DNA of 55,553 nt. Origin: a virus (lineage: Duplodnaviria; Caudoviricetes). Positions 25,901 to 55,553 of the stretch are shown here, one piece after another. Position 1 is the first letter of the stretch. Each line of letters begins with the position of its first letter. The stretch is from positions 1-55,553 of the IMG/VR virus record IMGVR_UViG_3300045526_000237. The stretch is one strand, 5' to 3'. The notes under the pieces were generated by a model. The model did not search any database, had not been told where the DNA came from, and saw nothing but the letters and a program-made list of their open reading frames with translations. The position numbers and the translations under genes are program-made.

Positions 25901-26653
25901 AAAATCAATTGGTAAAGATACAACATCTCCTTGAATTTCGAACGTTCTTGTGTTTTGAAGTGCCGTTGCAACTCCAGAGACAGATGCATAAGATGCAATG
26001 TTAGATGAAGTAGAAAACCCTGAAGTATTTGAATAATCTGAAGACACGGCATAAGTAGCAATACCGGCATCAGTCGCATAAGTTGCTATACCAGAATAAT
26101 CGGCATAAGTTGCTATTCCAGAGTAATCAGAATAAGATACTATACCAGCAACAGAAGCATAAGTTGCTATACCAGAATAATCGGCATAAGTTGCTATTCC
26201 AGAGTAATCAGAATAAGATACTATACCAGCAACAGAAGCATAAGTTGCTATACCAGAATAATCGGCATAAGTAGCAATACCAGAATATTGAGAATAAGTA
26301 ACAACTCCGGCAACAGATGCGAAGGATGCTATACCGGAATTAGTTGCATAAGTTGATATACCAGCAACAGAAGCATAAGTAGCAATACCAGAATATTGAG
26401 AATAAGTGGCAACTCCAGCAACAGATGCTATACCAGCATTATCTGCATAAGTGGCATATGAAACATTACCATCAAAATTTGAAGCAGTTACAATGCCGGT
26501 AAAATACCCATTCCCAACAACATAGAGTTCAGAAGTTGCATTAGAAGTGCCTATTCCAACATTACCAATAACCTCTATTGAAGTTAAATTTTCACTATAT
26601 GATGATATTCCAACTTTAAGATTTCTTTGTCTGCCGCTAGTATACTTTGCCAT
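22949..26653 (-). CDS. Tail fibre-like structural protein, modular
   Basis: ATYA 9-aa repeats; modules shared with 17713..19854; internal duplication. Confidence 0.7.
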   Translation of the reverse strand: MAKYTSGRQRNLKVGISSYSENLTSIEVIGNVGIGTSNATSELYVVGNGYFTGIVTASNFDGNVSYATYADNAGIASVAGVATYSQYSGIATYASVAGISTYATNSGIASFASVAGVVTYSQYSGIATYADYSGIATYASVAGIVSYSDYSGIATYADYSGIATYASVAGIVSYSDYSGIATYADYSGIATYATDAGIATYAVSSDYSNTSGFSTSSNIASYASVSGVATALQNTRTFEIQGDVVSLPIDFNGTQNVVLTVEIQPNSVGLGSDTTGDYVETISGTPNQINVSDGTGEGSNPVISIADNPTLPGSVTIANDLQVNNNLNVTGNITVGGTAGYILVENFRVSDADIVLGFTTDSNGNDVSTDTTANHGGIAVASSEGNPLVTLNITGIETLPATYKKIMWFKAGAFAGLNTDAWLINYAVGIGSTQFPSGTRLAAGSVQFTEQDLAVVRNINASGIVTAGGGFVGSLTGTATTALNLSDAANITTGTISNQRLSGTYNIDVIGTATTAIDVIGGIGSISSLTVSGVTTTGLLNVGVGGTIITTVGVGSTTFVGIGSTQPGSTLVVNAPSGYSGNILDLQVGGSYLLRASKTTSGGNPVVLDIGGTSQAGIIKVFDTQIFAFYGSAYGTQAVRVTAPGGLNFGGSGDIDPVLLRDGNGVLAQRNAGIGQTFRIYNTYTSASQYERAYLGWNNNTFQIGVDTAGISTARSISLVGAAGSNTGDTLQPLQINQTWTAGTGIATALTLNVTDTSSNNSSKLLDLQVGGSSRFAVEKYGAVRANINALGSGLVNDHYFGCPTGSNNGFRIVGTGQGLRFSYYGFAFYNTTIGFTAGGIESLPDVVLARDSSNVLAQRNVGAGQTFRIYNTYTSASQYERAYLGWNNNTFQIGVDTAGISTARQMEFQTNGTTRLSIGATTGNLVLNTAGTAGTSVLVNAPSGFTGNLLDLQVNGSSLTRVASSGRIEFGFSGGSSSPQICGPSSSPFNLYLGGTNAAAQAAISSSGDGGIILGSTRYISWASGTLGASVTDIVIYRDTAGTLAQRNGANAQTFRVYNTYTSATNFERGSLGWSNNVFRIGTEKGSAGGTARQLELQTDGTTRVAITTDGFIDGTAFQSYELDDISTATDGQENTFVPRFNYDRVTITNPFRLTITVNGIPQSAFINNTDYVYQSNFLGSNNGYTIDTDNNIKFTESIPTGSEIVARVLPVSNTATRIKFYPFKPADILLGY
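23940..24632. repeat. Identical 123-bp direct repeat (23940-24062 and 24510-24632)
   Basis: Base-by-base identity. Confidence 0.9.
26045..26460 (-). repeat. 27-bp tandem array with a perfect 81-bp super-repeat (about 26077-26272)
   Basis: GIATYADYS/GIATYASVA/GIVSYSDYS units. Confidence 0.9.
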
Positions 26654-26654
26654 T

Positions 26655-26996
26655 TTAATTAAGTGTTTCTAAGATACTTCCTAAAAATTTAATATCTGTA
26701 TTATTACTCGCAGACAATACAAGAACATCACCGGACTCAAGAACTAACTTTCCGGCAAGAAGATTTGCGGTATCACTAGAAGAAATAGGAAAATTTTGAA
26801 GAATTTCTGTGGTGACTGCAATTCCAGAAACTGTTCTTCTATGAGAAAATGATACACTTTGAGTATCGGTTCCAACATTTGCCGCCTGTGCAAGTAAAAC
26901 AACTCCAGTATATCCAGTAGGTGCAGTATATATTCCTACCGGAGTTGTTGTTGCAATTTTTGTAATTGTTTTAAATACATTAAGTGCTAATGGCAT
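26655..26996 (-). CDS. Small virion structural protein
   Basis: IYTAP...GKLVLESGD motif; position in structural operon. Confidence 0.6.
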   Translation of the reverse strand: MPLALNVFKTITKIATTTPVGIYTAPTGYTGVVLLAQAANVGTDTQSVSFSHRRTVSGIAVTTEILQNFPISSSDTANLLAGKLVLESGDVLVLSASNNTDIKFLGSILETLN

Positions 26997-36075: not shown

Positions 36076-37365
36076 TCAACCAATAGTAGGAGCAGTAAGT
36101 GCAACAGGAGTTGCTTCTGCTGCTGCTAGGTCAAGAGGAAAATTGTGAGCATTCCTTGTGTTTTAACCTTTGTCGCCAAAGGGAGCGGACTATATCATCA
36201 CTCATAAGAGTGTCGGACGCTAGTGGCGTATTACGGATGAAGCGTCATCCACCGCCTAGTCTCTGAACCTTCCTTACACGCTTGCAAGGCTTGGCTGCTG
36301 ATTGTCTACAAGAGAGTTCCAGCAATTCATCCGATTTAACGAGCGCCATGCGTTCACAAAACGCTCGTGCATCACTTCAAAACCAAGATTAGCACGGTTC
36401 AGAATATCTGCCCAAGTGTTAATCACACGACCGTCAGAAGACAGTAGGGACTGGTTGAAGTTAAATCCGTTGAGATTAAAAGCCATCGTAGAAACACCAA
36501 GAGCAGCGAACCAGATGCCTACAACAGGCCAGGCAGCAAGGAAGAAGTGAAGACTGCGGGAGTTATTGAAGGAAGCATATTGGAAAATAAGGCGACCAAA
36601 ATAACCATGAGCGGCAACAATGTTATAAGTTTCTTCTTCTTGACCGAACTTATAACCGTAGTTTTGGGATTCGGTTTCAGTAGTCTCACGAACCAACGAA
36701 GAGGTCACAAGTGAACCGTGCATCGCTGAAAAGAGTGAACCACCGAAGACACCTGCTACTCCCGCCATGTGAAAAGGATGCATAAGAATGTTATGTTCTG
36801 CTTGGAAGACGAGCATGTAATTGAACGTGCCCGAAATACCGAGAGGCATACCATCAGAGAAAGAACCTTGACCAAAAGGATACACCAGGAATACGGCAGT
36901 TGCAGCAGCGACGGGAGCACTGTAAGCAACGAAAATCCAAGGACGCATACCAAGTCGGTAAGAAAGTTCCCATTCACGACCCATATAGCAGAAGACGCCA
37001 ATGAGGAAGTGGAACACTACCAGTTGATAAGGACCACCATTGTAGAGCCATTCATCAAGACTTGCTGCTTCCCAAATAGGATAGAAGTGAAGTCCAATAG
37101 CGTTGCTTGAAGGAACAACAGCACCAGAAATGATGTTGTTTCCGTACATAAGAGAACCAGCAACTGGTTCGCGGATGCCATCAATGTCTACAGGAGGTGC
37201 AGCAATGAAGGCGACGATGAAACAAATCGTTGCGGCAAGCAACGTTGGAATCATCAGAGTACCGAACCAACCAACATAAAGGCGGTTGTTCGTTGAAGTA
37301 ACCCACTGGCAAAACTGTTCCCAGGAGTTATTATTAGATCGTTGTTGAGCAATTGTAGCAGTCAT
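36076..37365 (-). CDS. psbA: Photosystem II D1 protein, spliced: exon 1 37365-36361, exon 2 36153-36076 (360 aa; Glu130 high-light type)
   Basis: Near-canonical D1; exon 1 ends GFEVMHER, exon 2 [25 protein letters not shown]. Confidence 0.97.
36154..36360 (-). mobile_element. ORF-less group I intron (207 nt) in psbA
   Basis: Exon CGAGCGU pairs with IGS GCGCUCG (U.G at 5' splice site); P AAUUGCUGGAAC, Q AAUCAGCAGCC, R GUUCAGAGACUA, S AUGAUAUAGUCC; terminal G; removal restores the frame. Confidence 0.95.
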
Positions 37366-37384: not shown

Positions 37385-37508
37385 AGTATGAGTATAGGGA
37401 TTACTCTTTTACATTATTTCCTTCACTACCCTCAAGTGAAGGTATAATAAGAGACATTTTTTACTTGCCTAGTCTCGGTAAGGAGTTATCGTCCCTTTTC
37501 GGCAAGTC
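37385..37508 (-). ncRNA. Structured psbA leader, PhotoRC-II-like
   Basis: ACTTGCC/GGCAAGT and GAGAC/GTCTC pairings; hairpins CCTTCACT..AGTGAAGG and GAGTA..TACTC with complementary loops AGGG/CCCT; family assignment from memory. Confidence 0.55.
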
Positions 37509-37548
37509 ACAGAGTTGAAAAGTTGTTACATTTCTTAACCCGTTGATG

Positions 37549-48555: not shown

Positions 48556-48591
48556 ATTATACCAAAAAGGGTGGACTATGTAAATCCACCC
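48556..48591 (-). promoter_or_regulatory. Hairpin/terminator overlapping extended -10 promoter of the glycan operon
   Basis: GGGTGGA..TCCACCC-TTTT then TGGTATAAT. Confidence 0.55.
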
Positions 48592-48602
48592 AATACGACT
48601 AA

Positions 48603-48728
48603 TAATTTTTTAACTGGAAATTAAAAACCAGGCGGGATTACCCCATCCGCACCACCAATCCTTGAAAGAGAGATTGGAAACTCTTTGGGTCATTGACTCC
48701 ACCACCTAATTTTGAGAAACTAGGAAAA
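48603..48728 (-). ncRNA. wcaG/manA-like cyanophage RNA: tandem pseudoknot units
   Basis: Units GGTGGAGTCAATGACCC-AGAG/CTCT + CCAATC/GATTGG and GGTGCGGATGGG..CCCGCC-CTGG/CCAG + TAATT/AATTA; located upstream of an epimerase gene. Confidence 0.65.
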
Positions 48729-51750: not shown

Positions 51751-53232
51751 TCAGAAAGTGAACTTCGTTTGGATTACTCCACCCCAATTAGAAGAATCCT
51801 CAGTCAATCGCTGATTATCACTTGCATAGAAGATAGCAGGAGTGATGCTGATGTTATCAGATACTTGATACTTGTAGAAGATTTCTAGAAGAGTAGAAGA
51901 CTCTAGATCCTCTCCAGTAGGTGCCTGACCTACGGCAATACCGGCAGAATTTCCCTTAACGAACACATTAGACCACTGAAGACCGGCGAACCAAGATTCG
52001 CTATCAGTAGCGGCACTTTCGGTACCACTCACAGTATTCCAACCATATCCAGCAGAGACGGAAGGAATCAAACCAGACTGCTCAGGTTGCCAATAAGCAT
52101 TCACGGAGTAACTATTAGAAGTTTGACCGGGAACCAGAGTACCAGAAGCACCGTTCAGACCATTGTAAGTGCGAACACGGGTGCCTTCAGTACCATAACG
52201 ATAACCAAAAGCAATACCATAGTTAGTACCACGATAACCAATTTGTGCCAGAGTATTCAGAGCACCAGATTCATCAAATGCCCCGGTTTCACTGCTGTCG
52301 CCATCTTGAGCAACATAGTTCAGACCAGCAACAAATCCTTTCTTACCTTGAGTCCAGAGAGCACCAACACCTGCACCGGTTGCCTTATTATAAACACCAG
52401 GAGCACCGGCAACGGTAAAGAAATCAAGAATCTCAGACTTATATGCAGTTGGGATCCATGCCATTTCCGTGTTACGAACTTTGGCACCTGCGGTAATAGT
52501 AGTGCTATTGTTAAAAGCAGGGAACTGATAATACAGACGATCAATAACTACGGTATCATTACCATAGGTTTGAGTATTGTCTGCCTTGTCAAGTTTGAAC
52601 AGTGACGAGGAAGAACCAAAAGGATCAGCACTGAAGTTTGAAGAACGCAGACGGGTACGAAGCAGATCCTTACCGGTAAATGAGGTATCAAGATTCAGAC
52701 GAACATCATAATTGAATGCGGTCTTAGTAACATCATCACCAAGGAATTTAGTCTTCTCACCAGACTTTGGACGATAATCATCCACACCACCCAGAACGAA
52801 GGTTGCTTCACCACGAAGTTTGGTAGTGGTAGAGAACTGAGTTGCTTCCAGAGTGCCGATGCGTGCCTCAGCAGCATCAACACGACCACGAAGAACGGCA
52901 AGTTCAGCAGCAAATTCTGCCTGCAGACGCTTCAGTTCATCGGTAACTTCGGTTACACGATCCAGGCAAGCATTCAGAAGTGCTGCTGCTTCATAACGGG
53001 TCATCGACTGACCACCAACAAAAGTACCATTGGGATAACCAGCAACACAACCATAACGCTCTACAAGGTTGTTAAGTGCTTGGTAAGCCCAGTCAGTAGG
53101 ACGAACATCAGAGAACTGGGTGATGCTCGTAACTTGAGGCATATCCACATAAGGGCCATAAGGTTCTGCGAACGCAGCACCGGCGACAAGTGGAGTTGCA
53201 GCAAGAGTTGCTGCGAAAGCGGATTTAAACAT
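51751..53232 (-). CDS. Cyanobacterial outer-membrane porin (Som/iron-uptake porin type, SLH domain)
   Basis: FSDVRPTDWAYQAL..LVERYGCVAGYP, TRYEAAALLNACLD, FSTTTKL.GE, TSFTGKDLLRTRL, C-terminal F; start MFKSA after GAGG. Confidence 0.92.
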   Translation of the reverse strand: MFKSAFAATLAATPLVAGAAFAEPYGPYVDMPQVTSITQFSDVRPTDWAYQALNNLVERYGCVAGYPNGTFVGGQSMTRYEAAALLNACLDRVTEVTDELKRLQAEFAAELAVLRGRVDAAEARIGTLEATQFSTTTKLRGEATFVLGGVDDYRPKSGEKTKFLGDDVTKTAFNYDVRLNLDTSFTGKDLLRTRLRSSNFSADPFGSSSSLFKLDKADNTQTYGNDTVVIDRLYYQFPAFNNSTTITAGAKVRNTEMAWIPTAYKSEILDFFTVAGAPGVYNKATGAGVGALWTQGKKGFVAGLNYVAQDGDSSETGAFDESGALNTLAQIGYRGTNYGIAFGYRYGTEGTRVRTYNGLNGASGTLVPGQTSNSYSVNAYWQPEQSGLIPSVSAGYGWNTVSGTESAATDSESWFAGLQWSNVFVKGNSAGIAVGQAPTGEDLESSTLLEIFYKYQVSDNISITPAIFYASDNQRLTEDSSNWGGVIQTKFTF

Positions 53233-53376
53233 AAGTACCTCTATAGTTTCTCGCAGAATAATACCTGCGGATGTAAGGAGTCTCGACATGACTCCGTTGA
53301 TTCAAGTGACTAGTGCGAGTATTTGAGGCATTCATCACGGATATATTTAGAGAATTCTCTAAATACCATCTTAAAA

Positions 53377-53543: not shown

Positions 53544-53661
53544 CGCCGAAGTCGGGAATCGAACCCAAACCTCTCCCTGACAATGGAATTTAGAGTAATT
53601 GCTGTCCGTATCTAAAACTAGATAACCGCTTTTTAACGTGCTACCATTACACTACTTCGGC
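53544..53661 (-). ncRNA. tRNA-like RNA with CAGCAA module replacing the anticodon arm
   Basis: Acceptor GCCGAAG/CTTCGGC, D arm GTGT-AATGGTA-GCAC, T arm TTGGG-TTCGATT-CCCGA; ~70-nt centre with TATCTA-GTTT-TAGATA-CGGA-CAGCAA. Confidence 0.8.
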
Positions 53662-53664
53662 AGG

Positions 53665-53751
53665 GGGGAAATATAAGAGTCGAACTTATTAAGAACGGTG
53701 CAGTATTTATCTTTAACTAGATAACCTCCGGTCCCCCAGAGTAATTTCCCC
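53665..53751 (-). ncRNA. Shorter, divergent tRNA-like RNA of the same family
   Basis: Acceptor GGGGAAAT/ATTTCCCC, T arm ATAAG-TTCGACT-CTTAT, centre GGTTATCTAGTTAAAGATAAATA-CTGCA. Confidence 0.65.
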
Positions 53752-53776
53752 ATAAAACAGACAGAAAACTGTCTGA

Positions 53777-53895
53777 TACCAGAACCAGGAATCGAACCTA
53801 GACTTCCTCCTCCCTATGGATTAATAGAAATTGCTGTCCGTATCTAAAACTAGATAACCGATTGTTTAAGCGTGCTACCATTACACTATTCTGGT
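53777..53895 (-). ncRNA. tRNA-like RNA with CAGCAA module replacing the anticodon arm
   Basis: Acceptor ACCAGAA/TTCTGGT, same D arm, T arm CTAGG-TTCGATT-CCTGG; compensatory changes relative to 53544..53661. Confidence 0.8.
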
Positions 53896-53947: not shown

Positions 53948-53987
53948 TAAGAGGGGAGGAAGAGATTGTCAACCCCCCTCACACTTA

Positions 53988-55451
53988 TCAGGCGAACACT
54001 TCGCCAATTGGTGCATAACGCTCATCATACACCGCATCGTTCATCGTGTCAACTGGAGTGAGAACACTGTCAGTAAGCACGGACTTCAGAATTGAAGGAC
54101 TGCAACCAGACACAAGGCAGGTACCAGTATCATGTGCTTTGATTGGAACATCACCATAAGAGTTTACATTCCAGAAGACCAGTTGAGGCATTTCATACCC
54201 TGCCTTACGGTAGAGTTTTTGAATTTGCTCAAAGTTGCTTCGCTTGTTAGAGCGGCAGCACTGGTCAAACTGCATGTCAGAGACAATGATCAGTTTTTGA
54301 GGCATGTCCTCTGCGGAAACATTATTCTTTACCCCGGCATCAAGAACAGTCTTGAACACTGCCATGAGGTCAGTATTCATTTGCCAAGCAGCACGGGAAA
54401 GATTACCAATCCGAGAACCGATGGTAGAACCAACAATGGATTGAAGTTCAGGACGTTCAGAGAAAGTCAGGAACTTGTTCTTCCACACTTGAGCAGTATT
54501 ACGCTCTGCAATATACATTGCAAGAGAGATAGACACTGCCATAGGACGACCCATCATAGAACCAGAAACGTCTGCAACAACGAGTCCGTTGAACTCCTTA
54601 CCTTCCATGTAGTTAGGAAGTGCTTCCCACTGCAGGTCGATAGTCTTGTCATTTCGAGCACCCTTGTAGAGATATTGTTCGACAATATCGTAAGGGTACA
54701 GAGTTGCAGCGTTGATCTTTGCTTCACCTTTTGAAACAGCATTCAGATACTCTTGGTAACGAGTGCCGTCTTGCTTTGCAAATGCCTTGCGGTACATGAA
54801 AGCGGCACGAGAAGGTACTTTAGAATAGTCAATTGCAGACCACTCCTTAGAGCACATCGCCTTCTCAACGACATTGATATGAGTACGCAGATTGCTCAGA
54901 ATCTTACGATACTCACGCTCAGTCAGTCCAAGATGCTCTGCAATCTTGCGACCAAGACGCTTGGTGTCCTTGCTGGAAGCGTTGATAGAAGGCAACCACT
55001 TGGCAAGCAGAGAAACGGATTCTCCTGCCTTGTAAGAGATGCGATCCACGTTCAGTTGAGTCTGAATTACATTCAGCACAGTTTCCCATGCAGAAGTGTT
55101 TTCCAGAACGAGCAGGTCATCCCAGCGTCCATAGACAGGAACCAGAGAAACCAGTTTTTGACCGATTTCACCATTTTCCTCTACAAGATATTTGAATAGT
55201 TGACGGAAAACAGCACGTTCTCCCTGACCACCACGAATGTCCCGTGCCCAGAAGAGAATACGAGTTGCAGTCTCAGGATTCTCAGCATATGCATGGGCGA
55301 ACAGTTTTTGTGCCTGATTGACATTGTTACGGCAAGCACCAATTTTTCCAAACAAATCCAGACACTTGTTCAGCGTGGACTTATAAGATTTTGCACCGTT
55401 TGCAGTCACGGTGTCGTTCATTTGAGTTTCGAGAGCAGTAATGAAAGTCAT
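53988..55451 (-). CDS. DUF2828 family protein (TROVE/Ro60-like helical domain + vWA domain)
   Basis: TANGA, CLDLF, LFWARDIRGGQGER, YGRWDDL, AKWLPS, YSKVPS.A; MIDAS DVSGSM, NTD, SDMQFD, FWNV, VSG.SP. Confidence 0.88.
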   Translation of the reverse strand: MTFITALETQMNDTVTANGAKSYKSTLNKCLDLFGKIGACRNNVNQAQKLFAHAYAENPETATRILFWARDIRGGQGERAVFRQLFKYLVEENGEIGQKLVSLVPVYGRWDDLLVLENTSAWETVLNVIQTQLNVDRISYKAGESVSLLAKWLPSINASSKDTKRLGRKIAEHLGLTEREYRKILSNLRTHINVVEKAMCSKEWSAIDYSKVPSRAAFMYRKAFAKQDGTRYQEYLNAVSKGEAKINAATLYPYDIVEQYLYKGARNDKTIDLQWEALPNYMEGKEFNGLVVADVSGSMMGRPMAVSISLAMYIAERNTAQVWKNKFLTFSERPELQSIVGSTIGSRIGNLSRAAWQMNTDLMAVFKTVLDAGVKNNVSAEDMPQKLIIVSDMQFDQCCRSNKRSNFEQIQKLYRKAGYEMPQLVFWNVNSYGDVPIKAHDTGTCLVSGCSPSILKSVLTDSVLTPVDTMNDAVYDERYAPIGEVFA

Positions 55452-55463
55452 GATGATTTCTCC

Positions 55464-55528
55464 AAGTTGATTGTGAATTTGTCGATTTCACAGAAGATGT
55501 TGGAGACATTGTTCTGCTGAATCAACTT
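55464..55528 (-). promoter_or_regulatory. CAGCAG stem element A in DUF2828 5' leader, abutting the RBS
   Basis: AAGTTGATT-CAGCAG...AATCAACTT-GGAGA-AATCATC-ATG. Confidence 0.7.
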
Positions 55529-55553
55529 TAGACAAGATGAGTTTTTGGCTGGC

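Follow-up and report, generated by a model that had tools for sequence, protein, structure and literature searches.

A repeated RNA module beside phage genes for Ro60-like DUF2828 proteins and its copy next to a cyanophage Shine-Dalgarno sequence

Here, we analyzed the leader of a phage gene whose product carries DUF2828 and DUF7788 domains, and propose tentatively that it contains an RNA operator. The gene is located in IMG/VR virus record IMGVR_UViG_3300045526_000237 (Duplodnaviria; Caudoviricetes), and the window, by which we mean the whole stretch of DNA analyzed, is the entire 55.5-kb record (55,553 nucleotides [nt]), for which genome completeness is estimated at 27%. Judged by its contents, the window looks like part of a T4-like cyanophage. 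Every long open reading frame (ORF) is on the minus strand, and the leader occupies the last 100 bases of the window, 5′ of the minus-strand ORF 53988..55451. A stem in this leader that runs up to the Shine-Dalgarno (SD) sequence is a true member of a covarying, strand-specific family of repeated RNA modules. Comparison of distant loci indicates that the link of this family with DUF2828 genes extends well past the window phage, and the protein is predicted to have a Ro60-like fold. We propose, with a probability of about 0.4, that the leader copy could be a target-mimic operator through which the protein represses its own translation by occlusion.

The modules are defined by a closing helix, a single-stranded (N)CAGCA(A) signature, an A-rich 3′ side and a G immediately after the 3′ arm. 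Two of them lie in the leader (Table 1), namely a distal module (A) that is truncated by the end of the window and a proximal module (B) with a loop of 42 nt, the 3′ side of which (UUCACA) is weakly A-rich. The first-pass annotation of this DNA had described a stem with CAGCAG running up to GGAGA, a hairpin ATGT-CTCCA-ACAT displaying TCTCCAA (55506-55500), which is the exact complement of TTGGAGA (55465-55459), and a second hairpin, TGTGAA/TTCACA. All of these were found where they had been placed, with the 9-bp stem ending directly at GGAGA. Module A is visible in full in two related loci (numbered with the prefix L), L019 and L004, as AAGATGAG-G-CAGCAA...CTCATCTT, and its helix covaries, reading AGATCAG/CTGATCT in Synechococcus phage B3 and AGATGGG/CCCATCT in L017. 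A coding leader was also considered and rejected, as the upstream ATG at 55509 opens an out-of-frame ORF of 42 amino acids (aa) that is unconserved.

Evidence for the family comes from 17 related loci of IMG/VR, 21 loci from metagenomes and Synechococcus phage B3, whose protein is 71% identical to that of the window; no phage genome near-identical to the window was found. Every related locus has three to six modules, which share the strand of the gene; their arms come in many sequences yet stay complementary. When 28 cyanophage modules were aligned, 95.6% of cells in the 9-bp helix were paired, and double-change cells numbered 39 vs. 12.1 ± 2.4 in shuffles (0/500 shuffles reached 39; slid registers gave at most 4). 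CAGCA was invariant in module alignments A1, A2, and A4, as was the G after the 3′ arm in A2 and A4, and the sixth signature base was A in all 18 downstream modules. A covariance model trained on all 28 cyanophage modules, leader copies included (R1), returned exactly three strong matches in the whole window, all of them training members, followed by a match of 13.8 bits. When the model was trained on the 18 downstream modules only, with no leader copies (R2), the window leader stem ranked third in the window (both strands) and was the best match outside the training set (21.6 bits, rough E 0.025), ahead of the next at 14.3 bits; its score is near threshold because of the 42-nt loop. With two sister copies downstream of the gene and this ranking by a model that had seen no leader, the earlier claim that the leader holds the same stem motif is borne out. 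Among 22 related loci, R2 recovered leader copies of the B type in 11 (E ≤ 0.01), with 25-35 bits and E 5e-5 to 8e-3 for short-loop copies, as well as several A-type leader copies, and 70/70 matches were on the gene strand; long-loop leader copies of 10 other loci fell short of E ≤ 0.01. A search for GATTCAGCA with at most one mismatch was uninformative, with 20 matches vs. 15.2 expected; of these, the four exact matches alone were of consequence. Rfam searches of the window (at the gathering score) and of five loci (at E ≤ 1) yielded no match to the leader or the sister modules; in the five loci, the sole YrlA match (E ≤ 1) scored 25.1 bits vs. a gathering score of 69 and lay over true transfer RNAs (tRNAs). 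Rfam 15 holds no family for the CAGCAA modules.

Some modules contain a T-arm-like GGTTCGA(T/G)TCC hairpin inside the loop (L003 3920-3977, L010 3709-3763, L013 5226-5282, L022 3024-3143, and L056 190-311). Modules of mycobacteriophage CELFI and Enterococcus phage 113 have a T arm with a D arm behind it, which makes a permuted tRNA-like domain of the kind described for YrlA.

The leader copies were then compared over 35 leaders (window plus 34 loci; 60-93% aa identity), which comprise 25 distinct sequences. Module B was present in 35/35, with arms AAGTTGAT/ATCAACTT; the exceptions in arm sequence were L039, with a shorter helix, and L047, which at 60% aa identity is the most distant and has covarying GTTAAT/ATTAAC. 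The family-conserved G follows the 3′ arm of module B in all 35 leaders and is at the same time the first base of the SD, so that the contact between module and ribosome-binding site (RBS) reported for the window is a feature of every related leader. The distance from the end of stem B to the ATG is 8-13 nt (12 nt in the window), and the SD reads GGAGA in 25/35. Module A is present in 30/35 leaders, separated from B by 5-12 nt. The B copies deviate from the consensus at the sixth signature base, which is A in 17 leaders, T in 11, and G in 7, and they obtain lower model scores than the downstream modules. The loop of module B is unconserved, with short-loop types (15-33 nt after CAGCAN) vs. long-loop types that hold two internal hairpins. 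In the long-loop leaders, the C(U/A)CCA loop of hairpin 1 is closed by ATGT/ACAT, TGT/ACA, or AGA/TCT, and hairpin 2 has four alternative stems (TGTGAA/TTCACA, GGTAA/TTACC, GGTTAT/ATAACC, and GGCTA/TAGCC); these stem changes were read directly from the sequences and not from pair counts.

The modules also accompany DUF2828 genes in phages only distantly related to that of the window. We sampled 19 loci from about 18 non-cyanophage lineages (35-44% aa identity) and searched with a descriptor that called for CAGCAA no more than 3 nt from the 5′ arm and for a closing helix of 7 bp or longer. In 14 distant loci, the descriptor matched 28 times on the gene strand vs. 0 times on the opposite strand, with about 3.6 matches expected from shuffles for both strands together. 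A few of the 28 lie inside coding sequence and are probably chance matches. Two further lineages extend this evidence. Because R1 detects true modules weakly in distant phages (E 0.13-3.4), the cross-lineage evidence rests on this descriptor count with its shuffles. Clear modules flank the gene in 11/18 of the other lineages sampled (Table 1), and in Vibrio phage D484 the motif occurs alone, over the start codon. In seven sampled loci, no module was found in the fetched flanks; such module-less flanks include those of Aeh1, Ochrobactrum phage OC, GAP32, Erwinia phage pEa_SNUABM_19, Mammaliicoccus phage PMS3, and a 373-kb IMG/VR contig (L018).

Geometry close to the RBS recurs outside the cyanophages, in KVP40-like phages, Aeromonas phage LAh_9, and Campylobacter phage F374. 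The minimum-energy leader fold in KVP40 and VS2 is a 6-bp helix, GACAUU/AAUGUC, that closes around both UUACAGCAAUU and the SD and has the AUG within its 3′ arm.

Three side observations concern the start codons of these genes. KVP40-like genes (L020 1457-1496 for KVP40; L051 for VS2) open with AUG-UCA-GCA-UUU and hence place UCAGCAU, a string resembling the leader-type motif, on the start codon; this could be a codon constraint (Met-Ser-Ala-Phe) or part of a site. GAP32 and Erwinia phage pEa_SNUABM_19 (L055 and L059) share the KVP40-like start and a conserved leader, with no clear module within 800 nt. In LAh_9 (L052), the modules span 338-790 and the annotated start of the coding sequence (CDS; locus position 672) falls inside module 5. 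The annotated start is probably too far upstream, and the ATG at 777, which follows AGGAG, appears likelier.

An AlphaFold2 model of the 487-aa protein, built from a 66-sequence alignment, had a predicted local distance difference test (pLDDT) score of 93.2 and a predicted template modeling (pTM) score of 0.91. In a Foldseek search of the Protein Data Bank (PDB) with this model, the top 12 matches were all Ro60/TROVE/Rsr structures, including Ro60 of Thermus phage phiLo (E 1.7e-7 to 2.4e-4, TM-scores up to 0.59), and the protein belongs to PHROG 850, labeled 'RNA-binding protein.' A sequence search of solved structures retrieved no relative and matched no solved Ro60; the protein likewise had no match to Pfam TROVE and no family in NCBIfam. 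Relatives are numerous, as tblastn found them in 711 phage records and they form more than 7,000 clusters at 50% identity. Taken from gene linkage and predicted fold, the CAGCAA modules are most likely the RNA that the DUF2828/DUF7788 family binds. The first-pass annotation had regarded the leader as the best internal link between motif and protein, and this link gains strength from the strand bias of the modules beside distant DUF2828 genes and from the Ro60-like model.

On these grounds, we consider that module B could act as an operator in the following manner. The leader of a gene for a Ro60-like protein carries cis copies of the RNA module that the protein likely binds, and module B reaches with its 3′ arm up to the first G of the SD, a point within the region that the 30S ribosomal subunit would have to occupy, the size of the 30S footprint being established knowledge of initiation. 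Protein in excess of the abundant trans-encoded module RNAs would remain free to bind the weaker leader copy, and the bound copy would block loading of the 30S subunit and thereby lower synthesis of the protein itself. Three steps of this scheme, namely binding of the module by the protein, retention of module B in the mRNA and lowered translation, are ones that we infer. The deviations of module B, in its sixth base and in its lower scores, are what would be expected of a weaker, lower-affinity operator that is bound once the main ligands are saturated; the operators of thrS and of ribosomal proteins behave as lower-affinity copies in this way. In its broadest form, which we regard as doubtful, the proposal would make DUF2828 a large divergent branch of Ro60 with its own Y-like RNAs, in which a weakened copy sits on the gene's own RBS in at least three lineages (freshwater cyanophages, KVP40-like vibriophages, and LAh_9) and synthesis is titrated against the pool of Y-like RNA.

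Several observations weigh against an operator. In fold predictions of a 124-nt construct of the window leader, the family stem B reached -17.6 kcal/mol with a probability of about 0.04-0.09, and across leaders its predicted probability ranged from 0 to 0.97. Six leader types have a degenerate SD and nonetheless keep the stem, and among the 11 further lineages with modules, 8 lack a copy close to the RBS. The conservation of the junction has limited depth, because the 35 leaders are close relatives with 25 distinct sequences. Moreover, the contact between module and SD could be a matter of packing, since the arrays are tightly packed, as the short gaps between A and B indicate. Finally, the modules may be excised from a tRNA/noncoding RNA precursor, and the mature mRNA may therefore lack module B.

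The last two points lead to the explanation that competes best with an operator, which we judge possible, if somewhat unlikely. According to it, modules A and B are further Y-like small RNA genes of a dense tRNA/noncoding RNA array, either processed off the mRNA or acting only in trans, and the contact with the SD is meaningless. The presence of three to six modules per locus with short spacers fits such an array, as does the fact that the modules are downstream only in many lineages. The transcription context is also of this kind. L019, which is identical to the window over the first 55 residues, supplies the upstream DNA beyond the window end, and there two tRNA genes are found directly 5′ of modules A and B, and the stretch from these genes to the ATG contains no convincing promoter. 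The single good promoter-like site of L019 lies about 520 nt upstream, before the two tRNAs, and the promoter scan of this locus was not above expectation (4 vs. 4.5 in shuffles); the scan of the window stretch gave 7 vs. 3.5 ± 1.7. Contigs from RNA libraries (three runs, two studies) join the CDS to the leader and to a further 37-387 nt, and are weak evidence in favor of an operator, as such contigs give no ends, strand, level, or single transcript, their coverage holes are meaningless and DNA carry-over is possible. In a Listeria phage, RNAs from noncoding regions within 2 kb upstream of an Rsr-like gene are described as discrete, promoter-driven and extremely abundant (PMC12282133). An array of this sort does not, however, account for the constancy of module B, which is fixed in place in 35/35 leaders, whereas five leaders have lost A and loci differ in how many downstream modules they have. 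Nor would it account for the coincidence of the module's conserved 3′ G with the first SD base in every leader, for a deviation from consensus that is peculiar to the B copies, or for RBS-overlapping copies that appear again in KVP40-like phages and LAh_9.

A role of the leader stems in cis, in processing or in stability, is rather improbable; they would mark sites of precursor cleavage or form a protective 5′ stem-loop, and the Ro-like protein would have no part in translation. A polycistronic context with tRNAs, the conserved (U/A)G after every 3′ arm and the position of the stem on the outermost 5′ side of the coding part are in keeping with such a role, which would nevertheless leave unexplained why CAGCAA is found beside DUF2828 genes of unrelated phages with different ribonucleases and hosts, and why the AUG of KVP40 lies inside a helix.

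Least probable, in our estimation, is the switch proposed by the first-pass annotation, in which protein binding toggles the pairing of the TCTCCAA loop with the TTGGAGA of the SD. In the window and L019, the 7-nt Watson-Crick complement between loop and RBS is uncommon by chance (p ~0.015-0.018; 1.8% of loop shuffles for the window), the anti-SD fold is the minimum-energy structure of the 124-nt construct, and hairpin 1 with its C(U/A)CCA loop recurs on different stems in long-loop leaders. However, 12% of shuffles did as well when G-U pairs were allowed and the 3′ arm was admitted as a target (p 0.12), and the pairing was absent from the fold of a 114-nt construct. Conservation of the anti-SD, the lack of which the first-pass annotation had named as refuting its switch, was not seen. 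A complement of at least 6 nt was present in just 2/25 distinct leaders (those of the window and L019), and the other 23 had at most 5 nt (p > 0.2). The SD has changed to GTAAA in L015-17, GAGGA in L044-46, and GGAAA in L004/5 with the loop still CUCCA; conversely, the loop has changed to CACCA in L030, L014, and L037/42 with the SD still GGAGA. None of the 25 distinct leaders showed a compensatory change of loop and SD, and hairpin 1 is absent from thirteen short-loop leader types. In this single lineage, additional pairing of the SD with the TCTCCAA loop may occur, outside the conserved mechanism.

Folding of the window leader is in itself unremarkable, with -18.3 kcal/mol for the 114-nt construct (z = -0.78; 40/200 shuffles were at least as stable). 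The 124-nt construct has three near-isoenergetic folds, which are, apart from stem B, the anti-SD fold (-19.8 kcal/mol, pair probability ~0.27-0.30) and one in which the 5′ arm of module B pairs with an inner AAUCGAC (-19.5 kcal/mol, probability ~0.6). Hairpin 1 has a pair probability of 0.60-0.69. The inner partner lies in the loop of hairpin 2 (AATCGAC, 55487-55481), and its pairing with the 5′ arm is the minimum-energy fold of the 114-nt construct. This decoy (CAACTT in other leaders) was rejected as a candidate, with p 0.08-0.9 vs. loop shuffles and 0.16-0.22 for AATCGAC; as the pairing is not significant against loop shuffles, no two-state switch is claimed. Anti-SD pairing is physically plausible in the window sequence, and thermodynamics alone singles out no structure.

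Table 1. Features of the window, with positions, and modules flanking DUF2828 genes in distant phages.
Feature	Position	Strand	Remarks
DUF2828 + DUF7788 gene	53988..55451	minus	487 aa; Pfam 1.8e-39 (DUF2828), 4.9e-49 (DUF7788)
Distal module A, 3′ part	55534..55553	minus	A-rich side and 3′ arm CTCATCTT (55541-55534); cut by window/record end
Proximal module B, 5′ arm AAGTTGATT	55528-55520	minus	9-bp pairing with 55472-55464
CAGCAG	55519-55514	minus	Variant of family signature CAGCAA; offset 0 from 5′ arm
Hairpin 1	55509-55497	minus	ATGT 55509-55506, loop CTCCA 55505-55501, ACAT 55500-55497
Hairpin 2	55492-55472	minus	TGTGAA (55492-55487), ATCGACAAA, TTCACA (55477-55472)
Module B, 3′ arm AATCAACTT	55472-55464	minus	
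SD GGAGA	55463-55459	minus	First G (55463) is the family-conserved G after the module 3′ arm
ATG of DUF2828 + DUF7788 ORF	55451-55449	minus	Seven bases after GGAGA
Sister module TAGATGATT-CAGCAATT...AATCATCTA-G	53950-53898	minus	Downstream of gene; 58.6 bits with R2 (R2 training member)
Sister module TAGGTGATT-CAGCAATT...AATCACCTA-G	53545-53485	minus	Downstream of gene; 65.7 bits with R2 (R2 training member)
Mycobacteriophage CELFI	Downstream only		3 modules
Bacillus phage Tsamsa	Upstream		2 modules
FelixO1	Downstream only		3 modules, among tRNAs
Listeria phages A511 and cka4	Directly upstream		3 modules
Staphylococcus phage 6ec	Downstream only		3 modules
Campylobacter phage F374	Upstream		2 modules; last ends 11 nt before AGGA
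Aeromonas phage LAh_9	Upstream		6 tandem modules; sixth ends 3 nt before AGGAG
Klebsiella phage FBKp34	Downstream only		3-4 modules
Enterococcus phage 113	Upstream		2 modules
Fusobacterium phage FNU2	Upstream		1 module
KVP40 / VS2	In leader		1 module

Other elements were noted in the surroundings of the gene. Two tRNA-like elements of about 118 nt, with D- and T-arm-like sequences, lie at 53775-53895 and 53544-53661 (minus strand), each with an insert of about 45 nt in which the hairpin UAUCUAG-UUU-UAGAUA is followed by CGGACAGCAAUU; a third, degenerate copy of the insert is found around 53665-53760. One of the two elements scores 43.2 bits with the Rfam tRNA model, ARAGORN calls neither, and the counterpart in phage B3 is annotated as a pseudo-tRNA. 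A sigma-70-like promoter candidate, TTGACA-17-TATGAT (54024-54052, minus strand; score 11/12), is located within the 3′ end of the CDS, and a second, TTGACA-17-TATAGA (~53950-53985, minus strand), which was seen by eye and fails the rule of the scan, overlaps the 5′ arm of the module at 53950-53898. Both candidates are located at the 3′ end of the gene, which suggests that the RNA array downstream has a start of its own. Just downstream of the array, at 51751-53289 (minus strand), lies the gene of a 512-aa protein that combines an SLH domain with an OprB-type porin barrel and weakly matches a cyanophage outer-membrane-protein family. Farther away, Rfam matches in the window comprise tRNAs and three RNA elements known from cyanophages, namely a group I intron (36166-36400; 81.4 bits) that overlaps the 5′ end of the minus-strand ORF 36274-37365, PhotoRC-II (37406-37520), and a wcaG RNA (48588-48685) that sits 5′ of an epimerase gene.

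The closest known counterparts of the modules are the Y RNAs. Ro60 proteins bind Y RNAs that are encoded beside them; these RNAs possess a terminal stem and, bordering a large loop, a conserved motif, and the motif in the Ro-binding helix of YrlA is given as GNCGAA(N0-1)G / CGAA in the published descriptions of these RNAs (PMC4201824; PMC12135203). By its predicted fold, the DUF2828/DUF7788 protein is of the same ring-plus-vWA RNA-binding type as the proteins of the Ro60/Rsr-Y RNA systems (YrlA and Yrn1; phiLo Ro60 with Yrl1/Yrl2). Like Y RNAs, the modules are located on the same strand beside the gene and have a closing stem with a short, conserved, purine-rich motif at the loop edge, and some of them appear to share tRNA-like T and D arms with YrlA as that RNA has been described. 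In contrast, their signature is CAGCAA/CAGCAG and not the published GNCGAA/CGAA, neither Rfam Y_RNA (RF00019) nor YrlA (RF02553) matches at threshold, and the modules are shorter (45-70 nt) and tandem; the protein, for its part, differs from Ro60 in having no TROVE match and no sequence match to solved Ro60. Since the signature differs and the Rfam Y_RNA and YrlA models are unmatched, we consider the modules to be putative Y-like RNAs of a divergent Ro60 branch and not members of YrlA. In the literature searched, we found no description of an RBS leader copy for Ro60 in the portions of text that were covered, nor of the CAGCAA motif or of autoregulation in the articles outside their supplements.

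RNAs of this type may already have been encountered in Listeria phages. For phage CKA15, hugely abundant noncoding RNAs near an Rsr-like gene have been reported and were guessed to be Y RNAs; the relevant sections of the paper define no motif, propose no autoregulation and assign each RNA its own promoter (PMC12282133). The most transcribed noncoding region of CKA15 is given there as 26,236-26,727, and the modules of cka4 (L029 855-1118) correspond to 26,359-26,622 of its record, inside that span, although cka4 is a different isolate and the match is by coordinates alone. Small ORFs CKA15_059-060 are reported to account for up to ~67% of phage transcripts at 40 min (PMC12282133); we take them to lie in the module region, a mapping made across isolates. 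In addition, a preprint on coliphage Bas63 places the Ro60-like gp130 beside tRNA genes and reports a counter-defence role, and the part of it concerned with this protein defines no motif (PMC11482910). The motif may thus explain the abundant, unexplained RNAs described for Listeria phage (PMC12282133), and the finding bears on the role reported for the Bas63 protein (PMC11482910).

The RNA partners of this protein family have so far been guessed at, and the motif provides sequence-defined reagents, which makes a bench test worthwhile. If an operator at module B proves true, feedback control would be added to Ro60 biology, with the level of a phage protein matched to its RNA array, and the Ro60 family would gain its first described autogenous translational circuit.

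Autogenous operators that mimic the main RNA ligand of a protein are known from the Escherichia coli thrS leader, which is bound by ThrRS, and for ribosomal proteins S8, L1, S15, and L20. By analogy, the window leader would resemble these operators in carrying a copy of the cognate RNA next to the SD of the protein's own gene, in the weaker, variant form of that copy and in an expected competition with the 30S subunit. It differs in that the ligand family is a phage Y-like RNA instead of tRNA or ribosomal RNA, and in that the leader copy may itself be a functional small RNA. Phage RNA operators offer a second comparison, as the MS2 coat protein at the replicase hairpin and RegA, gp32, and gp43 of T4 repress translation from a hairpin on or over the SD or AUG. 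The KVP40 leader, with its AUG in the 3′ arm, may be likened to the MS2 operator. In the cyanophages, unlike these operators, the SD and AUG lie outside the helix, and the putative repressor is a Ro60-like protein with abundant RNA partners in trans.

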